Origin: a virus
Taxonomy: Duplodnaviria > Heunggongvirae > Uroviricota > Caudoviricetes
IMG/VR virus record: IMGVR_UViG_3300028886_000034
Span: 54,081 to 118,080 of that record
DNA length: 64,000 nt
Reading direction: 5' to 3' (one strand)
The translations under genes and the position numbers were made by a program. The notes beneath the pieces were generated by a model that was not told the origin of the DNA, did no database searches, and saw only the letters and a program-made list of their open reading frames with translations. Positions 2,108-49,111 of this stretch are shown piece after piece; the stretch's first letter is position 1; each line of letters opens with the position of its first letter.

Positions 2108-2120
2108 CCATTAAAAATTA

Positions 2121-2608: not shown

Positions 2609-2777
2609 TTTCCTGGATAAAGGTCTTCAGTAAGTAGTTATTGAAAGATCTACACCTTTTAACCATCTATCTATACTATAGCTAAGGATGGAGCACTCTC
2701 TGTTAATCAGAAGTAAAATATAGTATAGAACTTTCCTAAATCTTTTGAGTGATGTAGACTACAAATAAGATTTATTT

Positions 2778-2851: not shown

Positions 2852-2876
2852 CCATAAAATATAAAAATAGTTAAAT

Positions 2877-2960: not shown

Positions 2961-2972
2961 CCATTATTACAT

Positions 2973-3045
2973 GGACTTGTAGCTCAATTGGTAGAGTAGG
3001 CGACTTATAATCGCCAGGTTCTGGGATCATACCCCAGCGAGTCCA
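2973..3045 (+). tRNA. tRNA-Ile (anticodon UAU); CCA encoded at 3046-3048
   Basis: The acceptor is GGACTTG/CGAGTCC. The D-arm is GCTC-AATTGGTA-GAGT. The anticodon stem GGCGA/TCGCC closes loop CTTATAA. The T-stem is CTGGG/CCCAG with loop ATCATAC. The discriminator A is followed by CCA. Confidence 0.55.
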
Positions 3046-3117
3046 CCATACCTTTGACTTTTAAACTAGTTTACCTAGTTCTTACAAATATAAAACTTAT
3101 AAAAGGAGTGTTTATCA

Positions 3118-3954: not shown

Positions 3955-3978
3955 AAGAAAAGAAAGGGTGTAGTTAAT

Positions 3979-4149
3979 ATGTCTGCTAAATACTATCTTA
4001 AAACTGATGAAGGGCATAGAGTTGAGGTTTCTGAGAGCTATTTTGATTCAGTTCAGCAACTTTATGATGAATCAAGTATTTCAGCAACTGGTGATAGCTA
4101 TGGTAATGAGGAAATTGTTCTTTATGTAGACGAAGTTGATATGCCTTAA
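3979..4149 (+). CDS. small acidic protein (56 aa)
   Basis: The ATG at 3979 is preceded by a purine-rich tract, and the ORF is below the track threshold. It is co-directional and tightly spaced with its neighbours. Confidence 0.4.
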   Translation: MSAKYYLKTDEGHRVEVSESYFDSVQQLYDESSISATGDSYGNEEIVLYVDEVDMP

Positions 4150-4159
4150 GAAAGGATTG

Positions 4160-4336
4160 ATGTATAACATGACTGAATGGTATTTTACAGAAGACAGTAC
4201 AGGTACTAGAACAATGGTGAAGAAGAAGGAGTATAAAGATCTTCAGTATCAGAGATTTAAGAATAATGAAGATCCTTATCCACAGAAAGTAGATACTACT
4301 AAACATAACTTGGTAGTGCATACATTGTATGTTTGA
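4160..4336 (+). CDS. small hypothetical protein (58 aa); start uncertain (4160 or 4169)
   Basis: This is the track ORF 4136-4336. AAGGA at 4152-4156 sits 12 nt before the ATG at 4169. Confidence 0.3.
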   Translation: MYNMTEWYFTEDSTGTRTMVKKKEYKDLQYQRFKNNEDPYPQKVDTTKHNLVVHTLYV

Positions 4337-4474
4337 TGTATTCTTTTCCTGGTTATCAGGAGTATTTGATAGTTCAATAAAGTTATTGCCATATATACAA
4401 TACGTAGTTATAATTTTTATAATTGTAATGTTGATAAAAGCTTTTATTTTTGATAAAAATAAATAAGAAAGGAT

Positions 4475-5083
4475 ATGATATTTATGTTGGGTAGTTATGA
4501 GATTCATGTTGTTCCCGGTAAGCTTCCTCAGAAGGTTGCTTCCGCATTTACAGAGATTTTTGGTAATATGGTTGGTGCTGAGTATAATGTGATTGCATAC
4601 CTTGGTAGTAAGGTTGTTTCTGGAGTTAATCATGCTATTCTTGCTACACAGACCATGATTACTGGAAATGATGTTCATAATGTGGTTCTTATTGTTCTTA
4701 ATGAGAAGGATGATAAGTTCAGTATTGTGGAGATTACCAATGTCCTGTCTGACTCTGGTAAGATGGGTGGGGTTCAGATTAATCCTACTACTGATATTCC
4801 TGAAGAGGCCATGAAGGTTCTTGAGGATAATCTTGCTGGATTTGTTGGTAGTAATGTTTCAGTTTTTGCACTTATTGGTACACAGGTTGTCAATGGTGTG
4901 AAGTACGTCTTTGCTGGTGAAACAGAGATGGTGCTTTCTCCTGAGGCTATGACTAAGGGTAATCCTAACAGGGTTGTTCTTATCAGTGTGTATTCCAATT
5001 ACGATAAGATTGAATTCAAGGAGATTCTTGAAGGGGTTCCTCAGCAGGGTCTTCTTGGACAGCCTCTTGGTGAGTGGCCCTAA
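4475..5083 (+). CDS. hypothetical protein with an internal tandem duplication (202 aa)
   Basis: AAGGA lies upstream. Two halves resemble each other: GSKVVSGVNHAILATQTMITGNDVHNVVLIV and GTQVVNGVKYVFAGETEMV...NRVVLISV. Confidence 0.6.
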   Translation: MIFMLGSYEIHVVPGKLPQKVASAFTEIFGNMVGAEYNVIAYLGSKVVSGVNHAILATQTMITGNDVHNVVLIVLNEKDDKFSIVEITNVLSDSGKMGGVQINPTTDIPEEAMKVLEDNLAGFVGSNVSVFALIGTQVVNGVKYVFAGETEMVLSPEAMTKGNPNRVVLISVYSNYDKIEFKEILEGVPQQGLLGQPLGEWP

Positions 5084-5384
5084 TAATAGATAAGCATTGA
5101 CTATAGGTCTATCAGATAGACTACTTAAACTGATCATTTGAGTACTGATATTCCTATAGCCTTTTAAAGAATTAACCATAGGTCTTCGCATCTTCCAGAT
5201 AGCTTAGATACTGATCAACTAAGCAACAGACTTATAAAGCTGCGTATATTCCTATGGCTTTTTAGTTTAAAATTTAATACCTCTCAGAGGGGTGAAATTC
5301 CCCTCAAACCTTTTCTTTTTGACCTGTTTTTTCTTGATTAAAAAAGCAGAGACAATCACCCTTATATAAAGGAGACTACCCATA

Positions 5385-5921
5385 ATGAGTATGGAGAAAA
5401 CAATTAAGTTATTTGATTCAGAGTTTAAAAAAGATAGTGTCAAGATTACTCCATTTGAAGCTAGAAAGCTTTTAGAAATGGAACTAGTTTATTGGGATAG
5501 AGATCAAACCTCTCCCTATAAAGCTAGAGTTTTGGTCTTTAAGTATCCCAATCATTATTACCAATATAAAGAAAGTGGGATAACAAATATGAATATGACT
5601 ATAAATAAATGTGAAAATGTGACTAATAATGCCGAACGTTATTATCAGCCAGAAAATGTTAAGGCTATCAGGGAAACTATTGAAGCTGTAATGAAAAACG
5701 CCGGTAAAACAGATCTTAAAGATATTGACTTGGATATGCTTAGTAGTTGTATTAATGCAACTTTCAATAGAAAGAAACTGTTTTATAAATGGTTTGATGA
5801 GTATATTAATGGTAGTGATTGTTCTGAAGAAGAAAGATCTACTGCTTGTGAGTTTTTAGATTGGGTATTTCTGCATAAGATTGATGGAGATAAAACTGGG
5901 GATTTGTATTTTAAAGAGTAA
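5385..5921 (+). CDS. hypothetical protein (178 aa)
   Basis: The ORF has an AAAGGAG Shine-Dalgarno. Confidence 0.65.
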   Translation: MSMEKTIKLFDSEFKKDSVKITPFEARKLLEMELVYWDRDQTSPYKARVLVFKYPNHYYQYKESGITNMNMTINKCENVTNNAERYYQPENVKAIRETIEAVMKNAGKTDLKDIDLDMLSSCINATFNRKKLFYKWFDEYINGSDCSEEERSTACEFLDWVFLHKIDGDKTGDLYFKE

Positions 5922-5926
5922 CTAAA

Positions 5927-6001
5927 CGGGTATTAGCGCAGTCTGGTTAGCGTATCTGCTTTGGGAGCAGAGGGTCGGAGGTTCAAATCCTCCATACCCG
6001 A
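5927..6001 (+). tRNA. tRNA-Pro (anticodon UGG); CCA encoded at 6002-6004
   Basis: The acceptor CGGGTAT/ATACCCG is 7 Watson-Crick bp. The D-arm is GCGC-AGTCTGGTTA-GCGT. The anticodon stem TCTGC/GCAGA closes loop TTTGGGA. The T-arm is GGAGG-TTCAAAT-CCTCC. The discriminator A is followed by CCA. Confidence 0.75.
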
Positions 6002-6118
6002 CCATTAGAATTTAAAGTAAATATTTTAGTATAAACAGAGAGTCTAAGGAGTGGAGCAAAATCCCTCTTGACTCTCTTATTTTTTTATGGTAATATTTGT
6101 ATGGGTGGTGATTGGTAT

Positions 6119-6406
6119 ATGAAAAGGTATTATAATGTGGTATTAACTGTATATGAAGATGATAATAATATAAGTTATTATAACAGTGAGTTCTTTTTTA
6201 AAAGGACTAGAGGTTCTTCATTAGGCGATATAACTCATCCATATTTGACTATTTATAGCTGTTATCCATCATCTTATCAAAATCATGGTACTATGTATGA
6301 TAGTTATTGTATGATTATTAATAATGCTATTCCAAAATTAGAGCTGATTTTATATTCTGCAAAAATAGATTTATCAGGGTCTAAATTTTATATTAAGGTG
6401 ATTTGA
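6119..6406 (+). CDS. small protein, paralog A of a tandem pair (95 aa)
   Basis: The start is chosen at the MKRYY motif, which has the same GGTGAT-N5-ATG context as the next gene. The C-terminus ends ...YIKVI. Confidence 0.5.
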   Translation: MKRYYNVVLTVYEDDNNISYYNSEFFFKRTRGSSLGDITHPYLTIYSCYPSSYQNHGTMYDSYCMIINNAIPKLELILYSAKIDLSGSKFYIKVI

Positions 6407-6407
6407 T

Positions 6408-6692
6408 ATGAAAAGGTATTATTTGATTTCTACATGTTTATATTATGAAAAAATTAGTCCGTATTATAATAATGCTTTATTTTTTAAAAGAACTAAGAAT
6501 TCTTCAGTAGAAACTATAACATATCCATATATGATGATATATAAGAATTTTCCATTAGCTTACCAGACTCGTGGAAAGAGTTATATTGAACTTAGCAAGG
6601 TGGTTAGTAATACAAGTCCTAAATGGCAGTTAAAAGTATATGCTGAAAAAATTGATTTTAAAGAGTCTAAGGATTATATCAAGGTGATTTGA
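6408..6692 (+). CDS. small protein, paralog B (94 aa)
   Basis: It shares MKRYY...FFKRT...YIKVI with the upstream gene. The start lies 1 nt after the upstream stop. Confidence 0.55.
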   Translation: MKRYYLISTCLYYEKISPYYNNALFFKRTKNSSVETITYPYMMIYKNFPLAYQTRGKSYIELSKVVSNTSPKWQLKVYAEKIDFKESKDYIKVI

Positions 6693-6693
6693 T

Positions 6694-6879
6694 ATGCTTA
6701 TTAATGAATGGCAGGTTAAATACAATGAAACTGTGATATATAAGTCATATACCTGGATTCCAGATGATAGAGTTGAGAGTAAGCATTATTGGATTAGCCT
6801 TAATAATAAAATAATGCTAGGACTGTGGGAGTATATGATTGTAGGAGATGTTCCAAATATAATGATAGAGGTTATATAG
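6694..6879 (+). CDS. small hypothetical protein (61 aa)
   Basis: The start is coupled to the stop of the upstream gene. The upstream C-terminal codons AAGGTGAT act as its Shine-Dalgarno. Confidence 0.45.
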   Translation: MLINEWQVKYNETVIYKSYTWIPDDRVESKHYWISLNNKIMLGLWEYMIVGDVPNIMIEVI

Positions 6880-6881
6880 TA

Positions 6882-7187
6882 ATGTATTCTATTAACATAA
6901 CAATATCTGAGTTTAGTAATAGAAATGCTATTTATAAGACTAGATATATTAGGACTAAATTGAAAAATCTAAAATCTATTTGTAATGCAGTAGATAATGG
7001 GATGTTTAAGAATGATATGTTTTATAATACAGTAATTTCAGATGTATTTAAACAGCTTCTATATGAGGACTCTATTAATAAGTCATTTAGTATTACATTG
7101 ATGTATAGCACAATGAAAACAACATCTATGATTTTATTTATTACAGCTGTAAAACAAACTAATGATGAAATTATAGCTGTTATATGA
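6882..7187 (+). CDS. small hypothetical protein (101 aa)
   Basis: The ATG at 6882 follows GAGG by 9 nt. The track ORF 6825-7187 is trimmed to this start. Confidence 0.45.
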   Translation: MYSINITISEFSNRNAIYKTRYIRTKLKNLKSICNAVDNGMFKNDMFYNTVISDVFKQLLYEDSINKSFSITLMYSTMKTTSMILFITAVKQTNDEIIAVI

Positions 7188-7209
7188 TAAGAAGGGTTGA
7201 TGAATTAAT

Positions 7210-7554
7210 ATGATTGATAATTACACTGTTATTAAAGTTAGTTTATATGATGTTACTGAAGAACCTGGTAGTATTCATTGGCATAATAGGTATGATACAA
7301 GTATTATATTTCTTGGCATTAAGAACTTTATAAGTAATTTTGATTCAGTTTATGAATTATATAACGATTATAATTTGAAGATAACTGATTGGAGAAACTT
7401 GTATCATAGAGAAGGTCTCATTACTAAAGACATAGGTATTATGATTAGAGGATTTAAATGCTATAAGTATTTTAAAAAAAGAAAATGCTGGACTATTGAA
7501 AGAGATTATGTCATTAAGAAAGATGTAAGAAAAGACTTTATAAAGGTGGTATAA
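7210..7554 (+). CDS. small hypothetical protein (114 aa)
   Basis: The ORF ends ...DFIKVV. Its final codons AAAGGTGGT form the Shine-Dalgarno for the next gene. Confidence 0.5.
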   Translation: MIDNYTVIKVSLYDVTEEPGSIHWHNRYDTSIIFLGIKNFISNFDSVYELYNDYNLKITDWRNLYHREGLITKDIGIMIRGFKCYKYFKKRKCWTIERDYVIKKDVRKDFIKVV

Positions 7555-7556
7555 AC

Positions 7557-7802
7557 ATGTGGGATACCTTTACAAGATATGACTCGGGTTTAGAAGTATA
7601 TGATTCCGGAAAAAGCACCTATCCTTTAAAATTAAAAAAACTGTATAAAAAAGTATCGAATGAGTTTGGTTATGAATCTATAGGTTTTAGTAAAGGCTAT
7701 ACTACCGAAGAGATTTTAAATCAGCATATAAAAAACGGTATGATTAATGTTTTTGAATTGCCTACTGATTTAGTTAGTAGATTAGAGATTAATTTTGTTT
7801 AA
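7557..7802 (+). CDS. small hypothetical protein (81 aa)
   Basis: The ORF is coupled to the upstream gene. Confidence 0.5.
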   Translation: MWDTFTRYDSGLEVYDSGKSTYPLKLKKLYKKVSNEFGYESIGFSKGYTTEEILNQHIKNGMINVFELPTDLVSRLEINFV

Positions 7803-7818
7803 AAGGAGTCAAATTTTC

Positions 7819-8031
7819 GTGAATTTGGTTATATGCAGCTTATTCGAGTCATATCAATTAGCAACTATGCATTTAGCTCAAAACAATTTTGAATATAAAT
7901 TTTATGAATCAATTATATTACGGAAGATATCTAAAATTTATCCTTCACCGTGGCCAGATTATGTCTATAGGTATGATAATTATCAATTGACATTAAATTT
8001 TTTAACATCTATAAAGATCGATATAATTTAA
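7819..8031 (+). CDS. small hypothetical protein, probable GTG start (70 aa)
   Basis: AAGGAG (7803-7808) lies 10 nt before an in-frame GTG. The track ORF began at TTG 7795. Confidence 0.4.
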   Translation: MNLVICSLFESYQLATMHLAQNNFEYKFYESIILRKISKIYPSPWPDYVYRYDNYQLTLNFLTSIKIDII

Positions 8032-13888: not shown

Positions 13889-16468
13889 ATGGCTTCACCA
13901 CTAACTACATATATAAGATGGTTAGCTACTGAAGGAAATGTGCCATTTCCAGAGGAATGTAAGTCTCTTAAGATTTCCTCTATTTTAAGTTTAGCTGAAG
14001 AAGATTTTGAAACATCTATTGTATTGAATCAGCTTTTCAATAATCCTTATGCGTATAAGTATTCTATTGAAGATATTGCTAAAGTACATAAGAAGTATAA
14101 CACTATTTATAAGTTTAATTATATTCCTGTTAAACCCGTGTTTCCCAAAATTGAAGAAAAACCTAAAAAGAAAGAAACTGATGTAGTTATTAATAAAAAG
14201 AGTAAATATAAATTGTATAGCTCTAAAGAGAAAGAAGATTCTAAGCCAACTGATGGGTATTCTAAGCCTATGCTGTTTAACTTCTATTCAGACTATGTGA
14301 ATAAGGAATTTGCATATGTTATTAGAGTTGGTGATAAAAGATATATTACTCAGACTGATGATATGGTTATGATGTATACCGGTAAAGATGATTATTTAGA
14401 TGTTCATGATATTGCAGGATTAAAAGGTGAACTGGTACATTATGGTAAAAGAAAATACATTATTGAACAAATTCAGTCAGAATCTTCTTATAAAGCTATT
14501 TATAATGTAGATTTTAATTTGGCTATTCATAAGAATTATCTTTGGAAAAAAGAAAACAAAGATAATCTTGGTCATTATAAACTTAGAGTAAATTATGTTG
14601 ATATTGAGTTGTATCAAGAAGGATATGGTATTATTGACTTTGCTGATATTAAGAAGTCAGCTAGAGTTATTCCCGTTAACTTGATTACTTTGTATGATAA
14701 TTATACTGACAAATATTATACTTTGGTCTATAATTTAAACAAAGCTAAAATTAATACTGAACAAATTAAGGAATATCTTGATTACAAAGATGAGTGTATT
14801 TTCAATGTAGAAATCTTTGATAAAGAAAGTGATATGTTCCTTAAGTTCTTCAGTTTATTGAAAGAATTTGATCCAGATCTAGTATCTGGGTGGAATAGTG
14901 ATGAATTTGATTTACCTTATATTAAGTATAGAGCAGAATTTTTAGGAATTGAACATCCTAAACTGGCTCATAATAAAACTTTTGAAATTGAATATAAAAC
15001 AGTTATGAATAAACATGAAGAGGAAGTTACTTATTGTATTCCTCATATTGGTTATTCTGTAGCACTTGATTATCAAAGATGCTATAAGGAAAGAACTCTT
15101 GGTAAAAAAGAGAATTATAAGCTTGGAACTATTTCTAAAATTGAGTTGGGTATTACTAAACTTGATACTGAAGATGGCATGGATAAAATCTTTAGGGAAG
15201 AACCTGAAAGGTTTATTGCATACAATATTAACGACGTTCATCTTGTAAGAAAATTGGATGAAAAGTTGAAGTATATTGACCTTAATTTTAGTATAGTCCA
15301 GTTGGCTAATATCTCATGGGATAGTATTTATACTACTCTACATATTTGTGATGGGATTCTTTATGAGTATCTTATGGATAGAGATAAAGTAGCCAAAATT
15401 GTTAAAGCTGGAATTGAGAAGAAAAAGTTTGCGGGTGCTTATGTTAGAGAACCAATTAGCGGTGTACATGATTGGTTGGGTGATTTGGATCTTACTTCTC
15501 TTTATCCATACATTATGGCAAGATATAACATTAGTGCAGATACCTATGTAGGAAAAGTTGATACAGATACTGCTAGACAATATATCTTTAATAAAGAAGA
15601 ATTTGTTAATTCCAATACAGATGTAAGTTTGTATTTGAAAGTTCAAGGTATTGAGAGATTGTATAAATTGTCTGCTAAAAGTTTTCATGAAAGAATGCTT
15701 AAGAATGGGTATATTATTACCCAGATTGGCACTATCTTTAAGAAGCATGAAGATAAGCAGTCAGTTCTTTATGATATTGTAGATATGCTCATTAAAAAGA
15801 GAAAAGAGTATAAAGATCTTATGAAGGATAATATTGGTAAAGACCAAATGCTAGTTGACAGATATGATACTATGCAGAAAACAGTTAAGATCATTACTAA
15901 TTCTCTTTATGGTGGTCAGTCCAATATTAGATTCAGATTGTATGATTATGAGGTTGCCAGAAGTATTACTTCTACTGGTAGAGAAATTGCTAAAATCGCC
16001 GCAGTAGTTGCTAATAATTGCATTAATCAAATGATTCAAAATAAATCTAATAAATTTGACCATGTAGATATTCCTTTTGATTGGGATTACCAATCAGAAC
16101 AAGCTCTACCAAATGTAATTTATGGAGATTCAGTTACTGGAGATTCTTTAATCAGAACTGGTAAAGGTAATATAACTATTAAAGAACTTTGGGATATGTG
16201 TGCTTCGGATAATAAAGTGTGGCATTATCTCGGAAAAAATTATATTCAGAATCCTAATAAATGCGTACTTGGATATGATGACAGACTTTATTTCCCAAGG
16301 TATCTGATGAAGCATAAAACTAATAAGAAACTGTATAAGATTACTACTGAATCTGGAAAAACAGTCACTGTAACTGAAGATCATAGTTTGGTAGTAATGA
16401 GAAATAATGTTAAAACTATAATTAAACCAACAGAATTAGTTGTAACAGACCAACTAATCACCTTATAA
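13889..16468 (+). CDS. family-B DNA polymerase, N-terminal gene (palm motifs A, B and first half of C) fused to an N-terminal split-intein fragment (about 112 aa)
   Basis: Pol B motif A is DLDLTSLYPYIM and motif B is KIITNSLYGG. The motif C tripeptide YGD sits at 16121-16129. It is followed directly by an intein block A (SVTGDSLIRTG...IKEL) and block B (VTVTEDHSLVV), then a stop. Confidence 0.9.
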   Translation: MASPLTTYIRWLATEGNVPFPEECKSLKISSILSLAEEDFETSIVLNQLFNNPYAYKYSIEDIAKVHKKYNTIYKFNYIPVKPVFPKIEEKPKKKETDVVINKKSKYKLYSSKEKEDSKPTDGYSKPMLFNFYSDYVNKEFAYVIRVGDKRYITQTDDMVMMYTGKDDYLDVHDIAGLKGELVHYGKRKYIIEQIQSESSYKAIYNVDFNLAIHKNYLWKKENKDNLGHYKLRVNYVDIELYQEGYGIIDFADIKKSARVIPVNLITLYDNYTDKYYTLVYNLNKAKINTEQIKEYLDYKDECIFNVEIFDKESDMFLKFFSLLKEFDPDLVSGWNSDEFDLPYIKYRAEFLGIEHPKLAHNKTFEIEYKTVMNKHEEEVTYCIPHIGYSVALDYQRCYKERTLGKKENYKLGTISKIELGITKLDTEDGMDKIFREEPERFIAYNINDVHLVRKLDEKLKYIDLNFSIVQLANISWDSIYTTLHICDGILYEYLMDRDKVAKIVKAGIEKKKFAGAYVREPISGVHDWLGDLDLTSLYPYIMARYNISADTYVGKVDTDTARQYIFNKEEFVNSNTDVSLYLKVQGIERLYKLSAKSFHERMLKNGYIITQIGTIFKKHEDKQSVLYDIVDMLIKKRKEYKDLMKDNIGKDQMLVDRYDTMQKTVKIITNSLYGGQSNIRFRLYDYEVARSITSTGREIAKIAAVVANNCINQMIQNKSNKFDHVDIPFDWDYQSEQALPNVIYGDSVTGDSLIRTGKGNITIKELWDMCASDNKVWHYLGKNYIQNPNKCVLGYDDRLYFPRYLMKHKTNKKLYKITTESGKTVTVTEDHSLVVMRNNVKTIIKPTELVVTDQLITL

Positions 16469-19637: not shown

Positions 19638-20049
19638 AAAAGATGTTCTTAATGAATATGCTAAGTTTGATGATAATGCACTTCAAAAACATACAGATCT
19701 TAATAAGAAAACTGTAGAAAGTATTGCTGAACTGGCTACTAAATTATATGAATCTGATATTGGAAAAGATTTTGAAGAAGATGTTTGTATTGATTGTATG
19801 AATGATTCACAAAGAAAACAATATTATATCCTAGAATCAATTGTAAGACATTTTAATGATGATGACCCATATTTGTGCTCTTTTATTGAAGATAAACAAG
19901 AACGCATTAAAGATGAAGTTTATTTTAGATCAGATAAGTTTTTGCTAGAAACTGATGAATTTGATGATAGTTATGGTGATTACCTAGGTAATGACTTTAA
20001 ATATGATATCAGAAGGGATGATGACGATTATGAATGTAACTTTGATTAG
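19618..20049 (+). CDS. acidic hypothetical protein (143 aa)
   Basis: An AGAGGTG Shine-Dalgarno precedes it. Confidence 0.5.
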   Translation: MIMMISKKDVLNEYAKFDDNALQKHTDLNKKTVESIAELATKLYESDIGKDFEEDVCIDCMNDSQRKQYYILESIVRHFNDDDPYLCSFIEDKQERIKDEVYFRSDKFLLETDEFDDSYGDYLGNDFKYDIRRDDDDYECNFD

Positions 20050-20701
20050 TAATACTGAGGATCCTGAATTTGTAATTACTTTAGCTGCTGCCACATGTTA
20101 TTCAGATTTGACTCTTGACAAATTGAAAGAGAAGTGTTTAAATAAAGAGTATCAAGACAAGATGGTAAAAATGCTTCTGGAAAATGGTCATGAATCTCCA
20201 CTTGAACATGCTAATTTTACCTTTTTTATTGAAGGTATTAGTAGAAGTGTTAGCCATCAGCTTGTTCGTCATAGGATTGCTTCTTATTCTCAGAGAAGTC
20301 AAAGATATACTACGATGCGACCTGAAGAGTTTACTATCCCAGAATCAATTAAAAATAATCCTCATGCACAGGCTTTGTTTGAACAGCATCTTAAGGATAC
20401 ATTTGATTTGTATAATGCATATATTGAAGATGGAATTCCTAAAGAAGATGCTAGAGAGATTCTTCCTAATGCTACTCAGACTTCTTTGGTTATGACTATG
20501 AATCTAAGAGAGCTTAGGCACTTTATGGAATTGCGAATGTGTATGAGAGCTCAAAGTGGTATTAGAGAATTGGCTGATAGGATCTATATTATCTTCCAGA
20601 ATCAGTTTCCTTTGTTGATTATTGGTTGTGGTCCTAAGTGCTGGTTTGGAAAATGCACTGAAAAGCATAGGACTAAGGATTGCCCTAAGGAGAAAATTTA
20701 A
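20030..20701 (+). CDS. thyX: flavin-dependent thymidylate synthase ThyX
   Basis: It carries the ThyX signature RHRIASYSQRSQRY (RHR-X7-S) with the upstream context ESPLEHANFTFFIEG. The start is trimmed to the ATG at 20030. Confidence 0.8.
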   Translation: MNVTLISNTEDPEFVITLAAATCYSDLTLDKLKEKCLNKEYQDKMVKMLLENGHESPLEHANFTFFIEGISRSVSHQLVRHRIASYSQRSQRYTTMRPEEFTIPESIKNNPHAQALFEQHLKDTFDLYNAYIEDGIPKEDAREILPNATQTSLVMTMNLRELRHFMELRMCMRAQSGIRELADRIYIIFQNQFPLLIIGCGPKCWFGKCTEKHRTKDCPKEKI

Positions 20702-20753: not shown

Positions 20754-21863
20754 GTGGCTCAGTTAGAATATTGTTTGATAGACGGTAGCATTAAGAATAT
20801 TTCTGAAGTAGTGTCTGGGTTGCATAATTATATCTGCCCTATATGCGGGGAGCCTTTAGTAGCTAAAAAAGGTAATATTGTTGGTCATCATTTTTCACAT
20901 TTACCGAATAGTAAATGTCCAGCTTCAGTTTATGTTCATGGAGAGACTAATTTACATTTAGGCATGAAAAAGATTATTATGGAAACAGGCCTATGTAGGA
21001 TGCCTGAATTAGATATTGATTGGAATGGTAATATTATAAATCCTAATACGCTTAGTATGGGCACATCATATATTAGGATTAAAGAATCAAATTTTTATAA
21101 ATTTAATAAGGGTTATCTTGAAAAAAATTTAAATTGTGCTAATGGGAAATATATTAGACCCGATTTGACATGCTATGATGTTAGTTATGAGGAAATGTTT
21201 GGATTTAATAGCTCTCCATGTAGCGTGTATCTTGAAGTAACAGTAACCCATGGAGTAGATGATGTAAAACTAGATTTAATTAAATCTATAGATACTAATA
21301 ATTTTTATGTTGTAGAGTATGACTTATCTAAAGTAAATAGAGAATCTACATATGACGAATTAAAACAGGCATACTTAAGCGGCAGTATTCCATGCAATTG
21401 GATTCATAGAAGTGGTGAGAGCGACCTAGTTTGTGATAGATCTTATGAATACGCTTTTCGAGTTACAAACGGAGTTAAATGGTATGTAGATAGGTTTTAT
21501 GACAATCTAACTGATGAGGGATTAGATGCTTTAAAAGAGACTGACATTATAGAATATATGGAACAAAAGAAGTTTAAGAATATATTAGAAAATAAAAATT
21601 TTAATGGATTAGATCTAACAAGACAGTGGACATTTTTTAGAAACGAATTTCCAAGGTCGATTGTTACATCAAACGTTAATTTTTGCCCACAATTTCAGGA
21701 CTACCATATAAGGAAAAAGGCACCAGTGATGATTCAGTGCTTATCGTGTAAGCACTGTAAGAGAGCAACTTATTTTAATAGTAATAGCTATCCTAAATTT
21801 ATTATCTTATGTGAAGATAAGACAGCTCGTAATGGATATAAGGTTTTTAATAAAGCCTCTTGA
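20754..21863 (+). CDS. CoiA-like zinc-finger/nuclease family protein (369 aa), GTG start
   Basis: The N-terminal signature YICPICGEPLVAKKGNIVGHHFSHLPNSKC matches the competence CoiA family pattern CPxCx...KxG...HFxH...C. AGAGGG lies 9 nt before the GTG at 20754. Confidence 0.5.
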   Translation: MAQLEYCLIDGSIKNISEVVSGLHNYICPICGEPLVAKKGNIVGHHFSHLPNSKCPASVYVHGETNLHLGMKKIIMETGLCRMPELDIDWNGNIINPNTLSMGTSYIRIKESNFYKFNKGYLEKNLNCANGKYIRPDLTCYDVSYEEMFGFNSSPCSVYLEVTVTHGVDDVKLDLIKSIDTNNFYVVEYDLSKVNRESTYDELKQAYLSGSIPCNWIHRSGESDLVCDRSYEYAFRVTNGVKWYVDRFYDNLTDEGLDALKETDIIEYMEQKKFKNILENKNFNGLDLTRQWTFFRNEFPRSIVTSNVNFCPQFQDYHIRKKAPVMIQCLSCKHCKRATYFNSNSYPKFIILCEDKTARNGYKVFNKAS

Positions 21864-21925: not shown

Positions 21926-23410
21926 ATGCAACTTACTGCTAGTTTTAACTTTTATAGAAGACCTGGAAATGAAGAAGTATATGATTGGCTTGTAGAAGCA
22001 TGTACTGTTGCTAAGAATTTGTATAATCAGACACTGTACTATGCTTATGAGTTTAAAGAAGCTTATGACCCGGTTAGAGAACAATATAAAAAAGAAACTG
22101 GTAAGTCTTTTCCTTGGTTTCCAGACGAATACGTTGGTTTTGAAAAACCTGTCGATGATTTTTTTAAAGTAATGAGTTTGAGGAGATATGCCAGTGAACA
22201 AGATGAGAACGGTGAGTATTATACTAAAAATCTTGAGGGTAAAAGTAATTGGGAACTACTTAAAAATCTTGTAGGTAGAGATGCAACTACAGAGGTAATT
22301 AGAACATTACTATCTAAAAATTTAAAATCATATGGAAGATCCCTTGGGGATTGGAGTAGGCACCCGGAAAAATATAAAGGAATGCCAAGAAAGCCCGGTT
22401 TTTATAAAAAAGGAGATCTGTGCCCATTATACTTTTCTGGTACTTCTATTAAAATTAACTCAAAAACTAGAAGTCTTGTGTTTCCTAAGCCGAGGGGAAC
22501 GGATGGATATAATAAAAGCATTTATATCCCACTTCAAAAATTGCCACATAATTCGGAGTATGTAAAAGGAAAAAGAATTGACCAAGTTAGGATAATTCCT
22601 AAAAAAGGATATTTTAAGATTGAAATAATTTATACGTATAATGAATCGGTTCCTAAACTTGATAATAAACGATATCTTAGTATTGATTTGGGTATTAGAA
22701 ATTTTTGTACTATAATTACTAGTGATGATAAACTTAATCCAGTTATCCTTGATGGTAATGCTTTGAAATCTAAAATTAGATTTTATCATTTAATGGTAGA
22801 TAAACTTAAACATAAGATTGAAGTTATTACTGATGAAAATGGGAAGAAAAGACCTAAGCAGTATACTACTAAGAGAATTGAAGCAATGACAAAGAATCAT
22901 ATTAATCGTATAAATTATATCGTTGATGCATATACTAAGTATATTGTTAGATATTGCCTCCATTATAATATTTGTAGAGTTATTTGCGGTTGGAATAAAG
23001 ATATGAAGCAGAAGATCAATACTGGGCATAAAAATAATCAAATTATTGTTAACTTTCCTTTTAAAAAACTACTTGACAAACTCGAATATAAGTGTAAAAT
23101 GAGGGGCATAAGCTTCGAGATTGTTGAAGAGTCTTATACTAGTAAAACAGATCATCTTAGAAATGCTCCCTTGGCTACTAAAGAAGACCCTGAAACTAGA
23201 GATGAGGCTAACTTTGGTAAAAGAATTCACAGAGGATTGTTTTCTTCTGGGGTTGGAAAGTTGGTGAATGCTGATGTAAATGGCGCTATGGGTATTATGA
23301 GAAAAGCAATTCCAGATTTTAGTTGGGTTGGATACCATCCATTTCATCCAGTTAGGATGAGAGTTAAAGACGTAATTGAAGGTCTAAAGTATTCTAAATT
23401 CCCTAAATAA
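21926..23410 (+). CDS. TnpB/Cas12-like RuvC-fold protein (494 aa), candidate compact type V CRISPR effector
   Basis: The RuvC-I motif is LSIDLGIRNF (D254). A TnpB-like helix NHINRINYIVDAYTKYIV follows. The YTSK motif is EIVEESYTSKTDH and RuvC-III is NADVNGAMGI (D450). The gene lies directly upstream of a CRISPR array. No CxxC zinc finger is present, and the usual IxxEDLN position reads VICGWNKDM. Confidence 0.7.
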   Translation: MQLTASFNFYRRPGNEEVYDWLVEACTVAKNLYNQTLYYAYEFKEAYDPVREQYKKETGKSFPWFPDEYVGFEKPVDDFFKVMSLRRYASEQDENGEYYTKNLEGKSNWELLKNLVGRDATTEVIRTLLSKNLKSYGRSLGDWSRHPEKYKGMPRKPGFYKKGDLCPLYFSGTSIKINSKTRSLVFPKPRGTDGYNKSIYIPLQKLPHNSEYVKGKRIDQVRIIPKKGYFKIEIIYTYNESVPKLDNKRYLSIDLGIRNFCTIITSDDKLNPVILDGNALKSKIRFYHLMVDKLKHKIEVITDENGKKRPKQYTTKRIEAMTKNHINRINYIVDAYTKYIVRYCLHYNICRVICGWNKDMKQKINTGHKNNQIIVNFPFKKLLDKLEYKCKMRGISFEIVEESYTSKTDHLRNAPLATKEDPETRDEANFGKRIHRGLFSSGVGKLVNADVNGAMGIMRKAIPDFSWVGYHPFHPVRMRVKDVIEGLKYSKFPK

Positions 23411-24301: not shown

Positions 24302-25297
24302 ATGAAGATAGAGAGTGTTAAATCAATAGAAGTGATTACTCCAGAAGAACCTATTGATGTATATGATATTGAAATGCCAGATGATGATCATTGTTTTTTT
24401 GCAAATGACATATTAGTTCATAATACAGATTCAATTTTTACTAAATATGGCGATGCATTGAAAGCAATTTATGGAAAAGATTATGATGAAATTTCTGACA
24501 AGGAAAAGATAGATAAAGTTATTGAATTGAATGAATCTGTAGCACAGTATATTAATAATGTAATGATTCATGAACTTCTTAATATGCATAATACATCTCC
24601 TACAGAATCTTCGGCTAAAAAGTTTAACTTTAATTTTAAACAGGAACTTGTTATTAGAAGAGCTTTGTTTCTGGAAATCAAAAAGAAGTATGCTATTTGG
24701 TTAGTTTCCAAAGAAGGAAAGCCTTTGGATAAAATCAGTATTAGTGGTATAGAAGTTGTAAGATCTGATTATCCTCAATTTAGCAGAGATATGTTAAATG
24801 ATTTTATTGAGCATATCCTTAAGAAAGGAATCAGTAAAGAAGAGCTTACCACTAAGATTGATGATTATAGAGGTAGATATGTTGAGCAGTTAAAAACAGG
24901 TACAGTTTATTGTGCTATTCCAAGTTCTTGGAATAAAGAAAACTATGCCCAAGATAGACTGCCAAGATCAGTTAAATCTATGTTGGTATATAATGCAATT
25001 TATGGAAGTACCTTTAGAGTAATGGATAGAGGCTATAGATTTGACTTGGAAGAAATTGATATAGGTCAATTTGATTCAGATACACAAAGACGCTTGACAG
25101 ATTTAGTTCGATCTGGTACAATGGGTAAAGAAGGTAAGTTAGATTGTATTACTATTCCTACTAATGGTACATTAGATTTAACTAAGTTTAGAATTAATTA
25201 TAATAAAATGCAAGAATTTGCAGTTGATGATCGTATTTCTAATTTTTGTGATATCTTTGGGATTAAAGTTGATGATCCTAATGATATAGGTTGGTAG
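24302..25297 (+). CDS. C-terminal split-intein fragment (about 41 aa) fused to the C-terminal part of family-B DNA polymerase (rest of motif C plus thumb)
   Basis: The intein blocks F/G end in VYDIEMPDDDHCFFANDILVHN. The C-extein follows immediately and starts TDSIFTKYGD, which completes YGD|TDS. The KKRY-type motif EIKKKYAIW lies downstream. An AAGGA Shine-Dalgarno precedes the gene. Confidence 0.85.
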   Translation: MKIESVKSIEVITPEEPIDVYDIEMPDDDHCFFANDILVHNTDSIFTKYGDALKAIYGKDYDEISDKEKIDKVIELNESVAQYINNVMIHELLNMHNTSPTESSAKKFNFNFKQELVIRRALFLEIKKKYAIWLVSKEGKPLDKISISGIEVVRSDYPQFSRDMLNDFIEHILKKGISKEELTTKIDDYRGRYVEQLKTGTVYCAIPSSWNKENYAQDRLPRSVKSMLVYNAIYGSTFRVMDRGYRFDLEEIDIGQFDSDTQRRLTDLVRSGTMGKEGKLDCITIPTNGTLDLTKFRINYNKMQEFAVDDRISNFCDIFGIKVDDPNDIGW

Positions 25298-28755: not shown

Positions 28756-28817
28756 TTCAAGAGTAAGCAAAAAGAAACCCCTTCCAGTCAGGGTCTCTTT
28801 TCGCCTCTACGGAGACG

Positions 28818-29039
28818 CTACCAGCGCTCCCATCTGTGGCTCTTGGGATTGAACCACAGAAGGACGCGACCGGTTTCGTCCTCGATCCATCGGCCCTGCA
28901 ATTTTCTGCTGGGCTTCTGAGCGAGAACGACGCGCACCTCCAGCTCCGCTTCGGCGGGGTTGGATGTGCGAACGTCCCAGTAGAAGCTTTCGTCTTCACG
29001 GTCGATGACCGCGATGACGATAAACTTCACTTCGTTCAT
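28818..29039 (-). CDS. small hypothetical protein (73 aa) inside GC-rich island 1
   Basis: A strong AAGGAGGTGAAAGA-ATG context is seen on the minus strand. The codon usage is GC-rich and unlike the rest of the phage. Confidence 0.4.
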   Translation of the reverse strand: MNEVKFIVIAVIDREDESFYWDVRTSNPAEAELEVRVVLAQKPSRKLQGRWIEDETGRVLLWFNPKSHRWERW

Positions 29040-29325
29040 TCTTTCACCTCCTTGGTGAATAATCCAGACTACACCCTTTCCTCCTTTCAGTCTGGACCCC
29101 TAAGATTAAATAGTTTGGAAAGTCGCCCTTAGGGTGCTGTGAATATCTTTCCAACGCTGCTTTGCCCATGCTGGTAGGCACACTTGCAGCTAGTGCTTTC
29201 GGTCCCTGAGTTACGTGTTACGTTGGACCTAGACTCTCTGCTTTAGGTAAGAGAGACTTTCACCTTACTCAACTTTACGGCTTGAGTTTACCGTAATACG
29301 CTGCCCCTAAAACTGAAACAGCGCT

Positions 29326-29354
29326 AATATAATATACATATAAAAATATGTTAA
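29326..29354 (-). promoter_or_regulatory. minus-strand promoter TTAACA-N17-TATATT at the edge of GC island 1
   Basis: On the minus strand the -35 TTAACA is at 29354-29349 and the -10 TATATT at 29331-29326. The predicted start site coincides with the first GC-rich base. Confidence 0.4.
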
Positions 29355-29356
29355 TA

Positions 29357-29393
29357 AAACTAGGGGACTATCAATAGTCCCCTAGTTTTATTT
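29357..29393. terminator. bidirectional hairpin terminator
   Basis: A 16-bp stem AAAACTAGGGGACTAT/ATAGTCCCCTAGTTTT has a CAAT loop. It overlaps the stop of the minus-strand gene 29388-29741. Confidence 0.6.
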
Positions 29394-29741
29394 AGGATAG
29401 CAGCAAAGGCCGTTACATCCAATGTGCTTCCCAGCGCTATCTCTGATTGCTTCTCCAGTAATGAATACATCTTTTCTTCTTTCTGGAAGAAGCTCCCATA
29501 TTGCAGTTCCTGCGATTGCTGATACAACAAACACTTTGCCTTCTTCTGAAGAAGGAAGATTCTTTACTTCCCCAAAGTATTTGGCACTAACAGTAATTTC
29601 TCCTTCAGATGTTTCGATAGTTTTTCTTGTTTCAGTTTTTTCCACCAATCTTACAGGAGGCAGATTAGATGGTGGAATACTAATCATGCCGTTACTAGTT
29701 TTGATGTTGATTTCGTGAGGGGTGAGATTAACAATTGTCAT
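29388..29741 (-). CDS. hypothetical protein (117 aa)
   Basis: The ORF is on the minus strand. Confidence 0.5.
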   Translation of the reverse strand: MTIVNLTPHEINIKTSNGMISIPPSNLPPVRLVEKTETRKTIETSEGEITVSAKYFGEVKNLPSSEEGKVFVVSAIAGTAIWELLPERRKDVFITGEAIRDSAGKHIGCNGLCCYPK

Positions 29742-45419: not shown

Positions 45420-45767
45420 TTAATTAAACTCCTCAATTTCACTCATCAGTAGTTCAGTCTTAGGATCACACTTAATGATTCTACCAGTACCTTCACAATC
45501 AATACAAGGGATTTTATTACCAGTATTATCAAACATAAATCCAAGTCCCTTACAACTCTTACACAGTTTAACTTTCATAATATCTTTATCAAAATCAACA
45601 ACATTATTTACAATATCACTAATCTGATATTCAGAAGCATTAGTTCTAACTACAATTCTACCAGTACCTTTGCAGTTAGCACAAACTTCTCCACCTTCAC
45701 TCTTACCAGTACCCTTACACTCCTTGCAAATCTTAATCTTCATCGACTCAGGATCATAGTTAAACAT
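45420..45767 (-). CDS. DnaJ-type cysteine-rich zinc-finger protein (four CxxCxGxG repeats, 115 aa)
   Basis: The four repeats are CKECKGTG, CANCKGTG, CKSCKGLG and CIDCEGTG. A GGAGG Shine-Dalgarno precedes the ATG at 45767 on the minus strand. Confidence 0.5.
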   Translation of the reverse strand: MFNYDPESMKIKICKECKGTGKSEGGEVCANCKGTGRIVVRTNASEYQISDIVNNVVDFDKDIMKVKLCKSCKGLGFMFDNTGNKIPCIDCEGTGRIIKCDPKTELLMSEIEEFN

Positions 45768-45768
45768 A

Positions 45769-46059
45769 TTACTTTTCCTCCTCAATATTAATAGGTTTAT
45801 TGTTAATACTAATATTACCATTTGAATCAACTACAATAGAGTTATTTTTAACTTTAATAAATGTACAACCTTTTAAATTCTTTACACAAACATCTTGATT
45901 AATGTAAATACTATGGTCATCACTATACACTTTAGTTCCTAACTTTTTTAATTCTCGTTCTTCTCCAAATTGAACAATAACTGCCATTAAAAATAATATT
46001 ATAAATATGCCAAAACCAATCCCAAGCACTAACTCAAGGCCATTAACAAACCAGGTCAT
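45769..46059 (-). CDS. small membrane protein, paralog 1 (96 aa)
   Basis: An N-terminal transmembrane segment begins MTWFVNGLELVLGIGFGIFIILFL. The C-terminus reads ...ISINNKPINIEEEK. Confidence 0.5.
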   Translation of the reverse strand: MTWFVNGLELVLGIGFGIFIILFLMAVIVQFGEERELKKLGTKVYSDDHSIYINQDVCVKNLKGCTFIKVKNNSIVVDSNGNISINNKPINIEEEK

Positions 46060-47604: not shown

Positions 47605-47659
47605 CACCTCCCTAAGGTATGAAATGATTATAGCATAGGGATTTATGCTGTCAAGAACC

Positions 47660-47702
47660 AAAAAGAAAAAGAGCAACCATAATGGAGGGTTACTCTTTTT
47701 TC
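47660..47702. terminator. bidirectional hairpin terminator at the edge of GC island 2
   Basis: The stem AAGAGCAACC/GGGTTACTCTT has one mismatch and is flanked by an A-run and a T-run. Confidence 0.55.
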
Positions 47703-47711
47703 TTTGCTGTA

Positions 47712-48290
47712 CTAGGAGCGGGAGATAATCTCCTGTACAGCTTTGAGGACTCGCGCCAGCTTGCCCTCAAACCCGGTGGAATTATCCACCACGATGACAC
47801 CGGGCACATCGTGGTAAGCCATTCGAGTCTTGTGTTCCAGTCGAATGGCATTTTCCGCATTACCCTTCCTAGCAGGGTTGTTAGCGGTAGTGTAACAGTT
47901 AGTGCCAACCGCTGCGGATACTAGATGGATGAAACCGTTATAACGACGAACAACCTCATCCATCGAAAGGTTGCTCATCGTAAGGAGTTCCCGGAACTCA
48001 TCTGACGTAACATACGCCATCTGGTCCAGGAGGGAGCGGTCGCACAGCACAACCGAACGGTCATACTGTGCGGCCTCCTCTATTGCACGGTGCTCAAGCA
48101 GAAGCTGGCGCTGGAACACCTTCTTCTGGAATGAGAACGTTCCAGGAGAGTTCCCTTCCAGGATAACCTCCGTGGCTGCCTCTGGTGCGACAACTACGGT
48201 CCAGCCATGGAGTCTATCCCGAAGGTACTCCATGGCACTGCTCTTTCCCCCACAAGGACCACCTGTGAGGGCGATTTTGACCATCTTCAT
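47712..48290 (-). CDS. P-loop NTPase/kinase of the AAA_28 (NadR-like nucleoside kinase) type (192 aa), GC-rich
   Basis: AAGGAGG precedes the ATG at 48290. It carries Walker A IALTGGPCGGKSS, followed by the VVAPEAATEV-type segment typical of small P-loop kinases. Confidence 0.6.
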   Translation of the reverse strand: MKMVKIALTGGPCGGKSSAMEYLRDRLHGWTVVVAPEAATEVILEGNSPGTFSFQKKVFQRQLLLEHRAIEEAAQYDRSVVLCDRSLLDQMAYVTSDEFRELLTMSNLSMDEVVRRYNGFIHLVSAAVGTNCYTTANNPARKGNAENAIRLEHKTRMAYHDVPGVIVVDNSTGFEGKLARVLKAVQEIISRS

Positions 48291-48372
48291 GATGGCCTCC
48301 TTTCTCCCCCTAAGTGGGGGTAAAAACAATCCCCCTCCCCGAGCATAGGAAGGGGAATTAAACTAGACTGAG

Positions 48373-48834
48373 TTAGCCCTGGATTGCCAGGGCTCGGTTT
48401 TTATACCGCTTGTCCTCAGTCACCTCGGCCCCGAACCAGGCCGGAGGCACGAACTTCTGTGCCTCGGCCTCAGAGCCGAATTCTACCTCGACCACTTTGA
48501 GGTGGTTGAGGCGACCATGGTACAGGTCTACCTCATACCCTTCGGCAGTCAGGTAGCGAGTTTTGCTGATGGTGCGGTCGCCAGCCACACTAATTAGCTC
48601 CTTAAATTGCGCGGAGGTGATTGGCACCTCGACTTCCGCTCGACACAGGCCGGTGCCAGCCTTGATGGTAAGGAAGAATTCCTCACCATCATTCGAAGTG
48701 CGGCGGCGAACCCGCGCTTCGTTTTTGCCCTCTAGGAGCACGTAACCCTGTAGGATTTCGTACTCCTTAATCACATTGAGGGAGAAGGGCACTGCTCCCT
48801 CAATGAGGAACTTGCGTTCCACTTCCATGGTCAT
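48373..48834 (-). CDS. CYTH-domain protein (triphosphate tunnel metalloenzyme / CyaB-like, 153 aa), GC-rich
   Basis: GGAGGTG precedes the ATG at 48834. The N-terminal signature MEVERKFLI is the ExExK motif of CYTH. A later segment reads ARVRRR...EFFLTIK. Confidence 0.6.
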   Translation of the reverse strand: MTMEVERKFLIEGAVPFSLNVIKEYEILQGYVLLEGKNEARVRRRTSNDGEEFFLTIKAGTGLCRAEVEVPITSAQFKELISVAGDRTISKTRYLTAEGYEVDLYHGRLNHLKVVEVEFGSEAEAQKFVPPAWFGAEVTEDKRYKNRALAIQG

Positions 48835-49111
48835 CACCTCCAGTGATATGTTTCTGGCCCCATGGACTTGGCCTGGGAATTCCTGTGGGAGATTCACTTT
48901 ATAGTGAATTGAGACCCATCTGTTCCCGAATAGTATTATATACATACAAATTTTAACCTATTAGATAAATACAGTTAATTCTAGTGACTGGATTATTTTT
49001 AGTATTTGGTACAAAACTAATTCTTAAAAAATTTTGAACAAATCTTAGGGTATACTAACACAGAAAGTAGTCTCCCTATATTATACATTATAGAGAGGAG
49101 ATTATATACTA

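Follow-up and report, generated by a model that had tools for sequence, protein, structure and literature searches.

Among small CYTH proteins, or triphosphate tunnel metalloenzymes (TTMs), the closest characterized relative of the protein considered here is NeuTTM of Nitrosomonas europaea, an inorganic triphosphatase. This enzyme lacks cyclase activity and is highly specific for inorganic triphosphate (PPPi) over nucleoside triphosphates (NTPs) (PMC3440374). CthTTM of Clostridium thermocellum falls into the same cluster 2 of the sequence similarity network as NeuTTM (PMC8233210). Modules that join a kinase to a TTM have been characterized only as plant UCK-TTM proteins, which were described as unique to plants and of which AtTTM1 and AtTTM2 from Arabidopsis phosphorylate uridine in vitro (PMC9582702). 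Fusions of CYTH domains with nucleotidyl kinases are noted in general terms in a passage of PMC8233210 that cites Iyer and Aravind (2002). Here we describe a CYTH gene followed by a gene for an AAA_28-type P-loop kinase on the minus strand of a tailed phage (Caudoviricetes; IMG/VR record IMGVR_UViG_3300028886_000034, positions 54,081 to 118,080). This stretch of 64,000 nucleotides (nt), referred to below as the window, represents 64 kb of a ~284-kb phage genome. The two genes form a GC-rich island that is a real, foreign and selected two-gene cassette. On balance, we favor the view that the cassette is an accessory nucleotide-salvage module, composed of a nucleoside kinase and a triphosphate phosphohydrolase, which supports precursor supply for a large AT-rich genome.

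The CYTH protein of the window resembles NeuTTM in its length of ~150 amino acids (aa), stand-alone architecture, fold, ExExK, RxR and ExE motifs, and Tyr/Lys dyad. It differs in being phage-encoded, in having a kinase as its partner and in the high GC content of its gene against an AT-rich genome. With AtTTM1 and AtTTM2 the locus shares a nucleoside-kinase-type P-loop protein tied to a TTM, and the bacterial relatives of the window kinase also share the plant order, kinase then TTM. In contrast to the plant proteins, the kinase is of the AAA_28 rather than the UCK/PRK type, the phage genes are separate and in the reverse order, and the phage TTM has no membrane anchor and keeps the catalytic glutamates that are lost in AtTTM1. 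The kinase is structurally similar to the ribosylnicotinamide kinase (RNK) domain of NadR (PDB 8X7F, 6GYE), although the identity is just 12-16% and the window protein lacks the nicotinamide mononucleotide (NMN) adenylyltransferase and helix-turn-helix domains. As a genetic element, the cassette is comparable to phage morons, which likewise combine atypical GC content with a hairpin terminator for each gene, lie between conserved neighbors and are missing in close relatives. It differs from them in that its carrier is a virulent-looking jumbo phage and not a temperate lambdoid phage, that it has two stacked units, and that its own promoter is weakly predicted.

Composition, anatomy and history of the cassette

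The GC content of positions 47703-48902 is 54.0%, versus 31.8% for the whole window; the other 1.2-kb windows have a mean of 31.5% (standard deviation 2.9, maximum 42%), which places the island at z = 7.6. The GC content at third codon positions (GC3) is 0.64 in the CYTH gene and 0.60 in the kinase gene, compared to 0.22 ± 0.06 in 63 other long open reading frames (ORFs). The windowed GC and the codon positions thus both confirm the GC-rich foreign island that was proposed in the initial annotation. Its left edge was also placed correctly, with a step up in the GC profile at ~47700. The step down occurs at ~48927, and the proposed right edge at 48960 takes in ~30 nt of an AT-rich candidate promoter. 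The island adjoins a plus-strand gene at 49112 in head-to-head orientation, in agreement with the strand-switch position noted previously. That gene precedes the tail sheath gene, which was called by a Phage_sheath_1C match on the orthologue in the related contig L005.

The abrupt change in composition might suggest an assembly artefact, in which a GC-rich bacterial fragment was wrongly joined to an AT-rich phage contig. We regard this explanation, the weakest of those weighed here, as refuted. An identical kinase protein is present on 11 contigs, the longest of 284,119 bp, and junction-spanning contigs with 100% identity come from at least four independent samples and assemblers. Among the contigs identical to the window across both island junctions are L001 (Logan SRR7971122), over 5348 bp, and L002 (JGI 3300026526), over 3110 bp. 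The CYTH-kinase pair also occurs in L003 and L004. In addition, diverged orthologous copies occupy the same place in L005, L127 and L012, with junctions unchanged in L005 and L127, and the insert is framed by a promoter and a terminator of phage type. These contigs exclude the chimeric assembly that had been raised as a concern. The cassette and its immediate surroundings contain the following features:

48935..48978, minus strand: AT-rich candidate promoter region (9/12 match in the promoter scan, and GC profile; role assigned by consensus)
48829..48927, minus strand: GC-rich 5' leader of the CYTH gene (direct reading)
48373..48828, minus strand: CYTH / triphosphate tunnel metalloenzyme gene, 151 aa
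48327..48360, minus strand: terminator-like hairpin directly 3' of the CYTH stop codon, 14-bp stem plus UUGUUUUUA
48296..48322, minus strand: small hairpin CCCCC-ACUUA-GGGGG, then the kinase Shine-Dalgarno site
47712..48290, minus strand: AAA_28 (NadR-RNK-like) P-loop kinase gene, 192 aa
47865..48360, minus strand: mosaic patch in the kinase gene, 57-80% DNA identity to L005 and L127, flanks 93-100%
47661..47705, minus strand: intrinsic terminator closing the cassette, inverted repeat with 18-nt arms plus U-run
47627..47654, minus strand: sigma-70 promoter TTGACA-16-TG-TATAAT, outside the island (12/12 consensus match with extended -10 TG)

The candidate promoter of the cassette reads TTAACT-17-TAAAAT at 48978-48950, and a perfect TATAAT is located at 48940-48935, with the GC-rich DNA starting ~8 nt past it. 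The leader of the CYTH gene folds no better than shuffled sequence (z = -0.28). An ORF of 190 aa that begins at 48945 was rejected as an over-extension; in each of 22 homologues the protein begins at MEVERKFL, and the true CYTH product is therefore 151 aa long. Strong Shine-Dalgarno sites, as described in the initial annotation, are present 5 nt from the ATG of both genes, namely GGAGGTGA at 48841-48834 for CYTH and AAAGGAGG at 48303-48296 for the kinase. The two genes are separated by a spacer of 82 nt. The terminator-like hairpin that follows CYTH is kept via compensatory changes in L005 and L127, and in L012 and L006 an unrelated hairpin with a T-run is found in its place.

The intrinsic terminator that closes the cassette has a predicted energy of -18.9 kcal/mol on the minus strand (z = -4.3, with 0 of 200 shuffles as stable), is weaker on the plus strand (-13.9, z = -2.1), and is conserved in L005, L127 and L212. 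A terminator had been proposed at this position; its description as bidirectional is not needed, because a gene that could end here is present on the minus strand only. The sigma-70 promoter sits directly downstream of this second terminator, and the same terminator-promoter pair follows the kinase gene in L212. By its consensus match it is a candidate for restarting transcription of the small leftward genes of the phage. The island is built of two stacked units, each with a Shine-Dalgarno site, an ORF and a hairpin terminator, and co-transcription would need read-through. The adjacency and order of the genes in the proposed operon were thus upheld, and its status as a single unit was not, given the hairpin in the spacer and the occurrence of each gene alone in relatives.

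In the IMG/VR contig L124, the flanking genes for proteins of 66 aa (75% aa identity) and 342 aa (74%) are kept and the island is missing; a different 73-aa gene lies between them, in ~410 bp in total, and the site is thus empty. In the same contig, the homologue of the 342-aa gene is itself broken after codon 21 by a 1.65-kb insert of higher GC content (6354-8000). This insert holds a 387-aa TnpB-like ORF (6721-7884, CxxC...CxxC) and may represent either an element of IS200/IS605 type or an intron-like insertion into this conserved gene. L005 and L127, with backbones 97-99% identical to the window, carry extra, unrelated genes between the island and the 342-aa gene (257 aa at 9034-9807 of L005, and 228 aa at 3382-4068 of L127), which have no Pfam match. 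This makes the divergent intergenic region a slot of variable content and a hot spot for accessory genes. No direct repeats or att-like sites flank the island, so transposition or integration is not indicated.

The two genes also vary separately. L006 carries CYTH only, in a backbone 96-97% identical to that of L012; the kinase gene is missing and the junction falls in the T-tract of the CYTH terminator. Conversely, in L212 the kinase gene (83% identity, GC content 0.54 in a background of 0.34) is present without CYTH. Its cassette starts in the small CCCCC/GGGGG hairpin region, just past the big hairpin, and the homology covers the downstream terminator and promoter. The kinase is also found alone in L209-L211. 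Neither gene strictly needs the other, since each occurs alone in close relatives. A second lineage (L012-L015 and L213) has the pair, with identities of 51% for CYTH and 56% for the kinase, close to the 53% of the 342-aa backbone protein, and its island genes are less GC-rich (0.49 and 0.41).

Relative to L005 and L127, the CYTH gene shows a ratio of nonsynonymous to synonymous divergence (dN/dS) of 0.06-0.07 and the kinase gene one of 0.17-0.21, and these low values imply that both genes are maintained by purifying selection. The synonymous divergence (dS) of the island is 0.25-0.84 (0.80-0.84 for the kinase) versus 0.04-0.2 in the backbone. The divergence clusters in the mosaic patch of the kinase gene, a pattern that indicates allele replacement by recombination. 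The GC-rich composition persists in all diverged alleles (window, L005, L127 and L212), which show GC3 of 0.6-0.7 despite their substantial synonymous divergence, in carrier genomes of 31-35% GC. Homology searches recovered the pair in both phage lineages and did not identify the donor lineage, the nearest non-phage CYTH proteins being ~50% identical (on short GC-rich metagenome contigs) and the nearest non-phage kinase ~41%. A DNA search of 50,697 GenBank phages with the island and the surrounding 16 kb gave no match. The record names and titles trace the related contigs to gut samples of bovine and other animal origin.

The CYTH protein and the AAA_28 kinase

The assignment of the two genes in the initial annotation was supported by Pfam matches to both proteins, and the catalytic residues are retained in both; NCBIfam contains no informative model. 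The CYTH protein, which starts with MEVERKFLI, scores 24.2 bits against the Pfam CYTH family (PF01928; cutoff 23.2) and matches phrog_6660 with E = 4.5e-29. Its best solved relative is NE1496/NeuTTM (PDB 2FBL, 3TYP; E = 2.1e-28). The AlphaFold2 (AF2) model of the protein (pLDDT 94) has eight-plus strands, and its top four Foldseek matches are 2fbl/3typ (E ~1e-13, TM-score 0.74-0.77, 40-42% identity), followed by matches at 5e-6. Further down the list come 3n10, a class IV cyclase, in 15th place (TM-score 0.43, E 2e-3) and human thiamine triphosphatase (ThTPase) 24th (TM-score 0.35). The invariant residues are E2, E4, Y29, R39, R41, K56, E65, K89, R91, E99, D101, E114 and E116. They include E2 and E4 of the ExExK signature (M-E2-V-E4-R-K6), in which K6 is at least 90% conserved among 23 homologues, as well as the tunnel RxR/Lys residues and the C-terminal ExE site (R39, R41, K56, K89, R91, E114 and E116). 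A catalytic dyad, Tyr28/Lys52, has been proposed for NeuTTM (PMC3440374), and the HMMER alignment to 2FBL places it at Y29 and K56, both of which are invariant.

The initial annotation suggested that the pair could make or destroy a nucleotide signal. Class IV cyclases are distinguished by HF four residues before ExExK (HFxxxxExExK), by loss of the central Arg of xRxR and by ExA in place of ExE (Vogt et al., PMC8233210), and the protein fails on all three determinants. The HF motif is missing, since ExExK begins at residue 2, and the upstream in-frame extension ...SLEVMTMEVERK is also without HF. The central Arg (R39-V-R41) and the ExE of strand beta-8 (E114-V-E116) are both retained and invariant, unlike in class IV cyclases. 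The WxRxR motif of ThTPase is not present either, as E37 is found two residues before R39 (EARVR). The name 'adenylate cyclase' carried by homologues in JGI is a known generic mis-annotation; only two bacterial CYTH proteins are known as cyclases, and the generic annotation is misleading (PMC3440374). Judged by its motifs and modeled fold, the CYTH protein is a TTM phosphohydrolase of the NeuTTM type, predicted to carry out Mg-dependent hydrolysis of PPPi and possibly of NTPs or short polyphosphate (polyP). Nothing points to hydrolysis of a triphosphorylated signal by this protein, and such an activity is not supported. A C-terminal extension in the CYTH homologue P0022 was considered as a nucleoside deoxyribosyltransferase and dropped, as Pfam gave no support.

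The kinase scores 70.6 bits against Pfam AAA_28 (PF13521; cutoff 27, E = 2.4e-19). It has a Walker A motif, G10-GPCGGKS-S18, and a Walker B motif, D84-R85, after the strand formed by residues 78-84, and its invariant residues are G11, G15, K16, E37, R85, Y93, R141 and K177. In Foldseek comparisons, the fold of the AF2 model (pLDDT 93.6) is closest to the NadR RNK domain, followed by thymidylate and deoxynucleoside kinases, including deoxycytidine kinase (dCK); a phmmer search of the PDB returned only noise and no NadR match. The family profile aligns to S. aureus thymidylate kinase with E = 2e-4, with VVLCDRG placed on VVLCDRY, so that the DR motif (D84-R85) is present and the third position is S/G and not aromatic. 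The Arg of the REP motif in thymidylate kinase binds the phosphate of the acceptor dTMP; in its place the family consensus has vpE, and the window protein APE. The window kinase has no NCBIfam dTMP-kinase match (TIGR00041/PF02223), and its fused bacterial relatives score 18-22 bits versus a dTMP-kinase cutoff of 83. As a lead only, an hhalign comparison with the sequence of human dCK gave a probability of 73% (E = 3e-5), aligning VAPE37 with VVPE53 and F54-Q55 with F96-Q97; E53 of VVPE is the catalytic base of deoxynucleoside kinases.

At the family level, the identities of both proteins are settled, as a NeuTTM-type TTM and a NadR-RNK-like AAA_28 kinase. We infer that the kinase is an ATP-dependent small-molecule kinase, with a nucleoside 5'-OH likelier as the acceptor than a nucleoside monophosphate. 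The subfamily comprises 2,581 cluster representatives at E <= 1e-30. A tblastn search of the 50,697 GenBank phage genomes with the kinase gave no match, and the AAA_28 kinase adds a new auxiliary enzyme type to phages.

Linkage of CYTH proteins to nucleoside kinases

Of the 80 best bacterial genome loci, 68 encode the kinase with a CYTH domain joined to its C-terminus, as one protein of ~370 aa in total. The same fusion is found in 37 of 80 metagenome loci and in 21 of 25 IMG/VR loci. A custom hidden Markov model was used for these counts, as the Pfam CYTH model is insensitive to the fused domains (1 of 78). The bacterial fusions belong mostly to metagenome-assembled genomes of gut and rumen Clostridia, Erysipelotrichia and Mycoplasmatota, Ruminococcus bromii included, and ExExK, RxR and ExE are all kept in 46 of 72 of them. 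In the window the two genes are separate, CYTH then kinase, and the fusion was not seen in this phage group. The phage CYTH protein is nearer to stand-alone CYTH proteins (50%) than to the fused domains (33-37%), so the two phage genes came together independently, in reverse order. No paper mentioning both CYTH and AAA_28 was found in the literature searched. Around the kinase, no conserved partner was detected in 93 and then 135 loci, the largest BLAST cluster containing 6 loci. Some genes occasionally neighbor the bacterial fusions in an operonic arrangement, at 4-6 each of 145 loci, and are noted as leads only; these encode His_Phos_1 phosphatases, NrtR/Nudix regulators, energy-coupling factor S-components and S-adenosylmethionine synthetase.

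Small CYTH genes are present in 146 GenBank phage records, versus none for the AAA_28 kinase. In all three T4-like Aeromonas phages inspected, which represent two genera, CYTH abuts the thymidine kinase gene tk in the order CYTH then kinase:

L293, 4992-6032: CYTH-tk pair of Aeromonas phage 50AhydR13PP
L294, 2495-3543: CYTH-tk pair of Aeromonas phage 31
L295, 2492-3532: CYTH-tk pair of Aeromonas phage Aes012

At the DNA level the CYTH-tk junction was recovered in 11 full-length records by a search too insensitive to give a frequency. As in the window, a NeuTTM-type CYTH gene (35% identity) is located directly upstream of a gene for a nucleoside kinase of ~191 aa in the same orientation. The Aeromonas loci differ in that the kinase is of the unrelated TK1 type, the genes abut or overlap without a terminator, and they are not compositionally foreign. 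In Aeromonas phage CF8 (L292, 3956-5519), CYTH comes directly after thymidylate synthase, with DHFR nearby. Neither arrangement was found described in the literature searched. ThyX is encoded within 6 kb of CYTH in 9 of 80 IMG/VR CYTH loci, in three of them within ~1.2 kb, and the window itself encodes ThyX at 19991-20701. At least three separate couplings of a NeuTTM-type enzyme to one of nucleoside-kinase-like type are thus on record, namely the gene fusion of many gut and rumen Bacillota, the CYTH-tk pair of T4-like Aeromonas phages and the split GC-rich cassette of this jumbo-phage group. The two functions are also linked by the persistence of the pair in two phage lineages of just 51-56% identity.

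Several further features were observed elsewhere in the window. A family-B DNA polymerase is seemingly split between ORFs at 13889-16468 and 24302-25297, ~8 kb apart, and between them are encoded ThyX, a CoiA-like protein (20754-21863) and a transposase-like ORF (21926-23410, phrog_506). The leftward block of small genes includes, at 45420-45830, a small protein with repeated CxxCxGxG zinc-finger motifs of the DnaJ central domain type (E = 2e-8); L212 encodes a conserved counterpart (85% identity) downstream of its cassette with the kinase alone. A second GC-rich segment (28757-29400; 0.42), presumably island 1 of the initial annotation, has no convincing ORF and no Rfam match. Rfam recognized no RNA family in or near the island, and only tRNAs elsewhere. 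A tRNA cluster extends over 93-6004; in it, a 94-nt tRNA with a CUA (amber-reading) anticodon was predicted by ARAGORN at 1827-1920 without an Rfam tRNA match, and an Rfam tRNA at 2037-2107 was missed by ARAGORN. Stop-codon recoding was considered and rejected, as there is no sign of it and TAG ends 7 of 65 long ORFs, including the kinase gene.

Possible roles of the cassette

The recurrence of the pairing, as a bacterial fusion and beside thymidine kinase in phages, argues for nucleotide salvage rather than signaling. The cassette is a moron module acquired horizontally by a ~284-kb AT-rich jumbo phage, apparently of the ruminant or animal gut. It occupies the divergent stretch that separates the structural genes from the small leftward genes, where it would probably be read from the AT-rich phage promoter at ~48940. 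In the proposed salvage model, substrates, benefit to the phage and expression timing are inferred. The TTM encoded by the first gene would split the terminal anhydride bond of PPPi, perhaps also of NTPs or short polyP, and would rely for this on the Tyr29-Lys56 dyad and on two metal ions bound by E2/E4 and E114/E116. The kinase encoded by the second gene would transfer the gamma-phosphate of ATP to a nucleoside 5'-OH, either of a deoxynucleoside or of nicotinamide riboside (NR), with Glu37 as the putative general base. Jointly, the two enzymes would couple the salvage of nucleosides into the nucleotide pool to the removal of triphosphate, and the expected outcome would be more precursors for replication of a large AT-rich genome that also encodes ThyX.

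Several points weigh against the salvage module. Free PPPi is barely detected in cells (PMC3440374), and it is unclear how triphosphate hydrolysis would benefit a nucleoside kinase. Each gene is found alone in close relatives (CYTH in L006, the kinase in L212 and L209-L211), and the terminator-like hairpin between the genes means that their co-expression is not assured. In addition, the neighbors of the bacterial fusions are not conserved, and the few that recur suggest differing functions; NrtR/Nudix genes were found in 4-6, S-adenosylmethionine synthetase in 4 and an energy-coupling factor (ECF) S-component in 4 of 145 loci.

A role in counter-defence against nucleotide-depleting immunity, in which the cassette would recycle the debris of deoxynucleoside triphosphate (dNTP) or NAD+ depletion, is the alternative that survives best, and we consider it unlikely. 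dNTP triphosphohydrolases of the dGTPase/SAMHD1-like type convert a dNTP to a deoxynucleoside and PPPi, and these products are the predicted substrates of both enzymes. NADase effectors deplete NAD+, and in the NAD variant of the explanation the RNK-like kinase would help to rebuild it. Such a role would also fit with the coupling of the two genes, with their presence/absence polymorphism and with their location where the small-gene block starts. However, no PADLOC-DB family matched either protein at E <= 0.01, no supporting literature was found, and no NMN adenylyltransferase or other NAD gene was seen in the 64-kb window. Removal of PPPi would relieve product inhibition of the host dNTPase, with no obvious gain for the phage, and the bacterial fusions are scattered and housekeeping-like, not located in defence islands. 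Somewhat more doubtful is the specific proposal of dedicated debris recycling, in which the kinase would re-phosphorylate the released nucleoside and the TTM would clear the co-product triphosphate; if left uncleared, triphosphate would chelate Mg2+ or act as a competitor at P-loops and in the active sites of polymerases. Were this to hold, small bacterial and phage TTMs and the thousands of AAA_28-CYTH fusions of gut bacteria would gain a first physiological role, namely the clearing of products of nucleotide triphosphohydrolysis. In a radical variant, the CYTH protein would replace the adenylyltransferase half of NadR, creating a two-step route from NR to NAD+.

DNA base modification or pool editing is improbable. 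Here the CYTH protein would destroy a canonical NTP or dNTP and the kinase would phosphorylate a non-canonical deoxynucleoside monophosphate (dNMP) or nucleoside, by analogy with the dCTPase and dNMP kinase of phage T4. The thymidylate-kinase-like DR motif of the kinase and the presence of ThyX and a Dam methylase in the window are compatible with this, and Iyer et al. (2021) proposed such a role for the CYTH and MazG triphosphatases of jumbo phages (PMC7824862). Against it, NeuTTM, the closest characterized relative, prefers PPPi over NTPs (PMC3440374), and a scan of ~40 window proteins revealed no hydroxymethylase, glycosyltransferase or PurZ-like protein. One or both genes are also missing in relatives with backbones 97-99% identical, which is unlikely for an obligatory pathway. 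A function in polyP or energy metabolism, with a PPK2/PPK3-like kinase (a polyP-dependent nucleotide kinase) and a TTM trimming short polyP or PPPi, is disfavored by the fold ranking and the neighbors and appears very improbable.

Slightly less credible again is the signaling function of the initial annotation, in which a class IV adenylate cyclase or messenger hydrolase would act with a kinase that modifies the signal: the CYTH superfamily includes the CyaB cyclases, homologues bear the cyclase name in JGI and an accessory, polymorphic location would suit an anti-defence gene, but the failure of all three class IV determinants (PMC8233210), the rank of 3n10 far below NeuTTM, the lack of PADLOC matches and the absence of signaling-related partners, the recurrent partners of CYTH being nucleoside kinases and thymidylate synthases, speak against it.

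What small TTM/CYTH triphosphatases do physiologically has been acknowledged as an open question (PMC3440374, PMC8233210). The analysis corrects the misleading 'adenylate cyclase' annotation of these proteins, and the locus provides a testable hypothesis, that a TTM acts in nucleoside salvage or pool maintenance, in the form of two small, easily expressed proteins. The presence/absence and allele-swap polymorphism also makes the cassette a reasonable candidate for screens of nucleotide-depleting defences.

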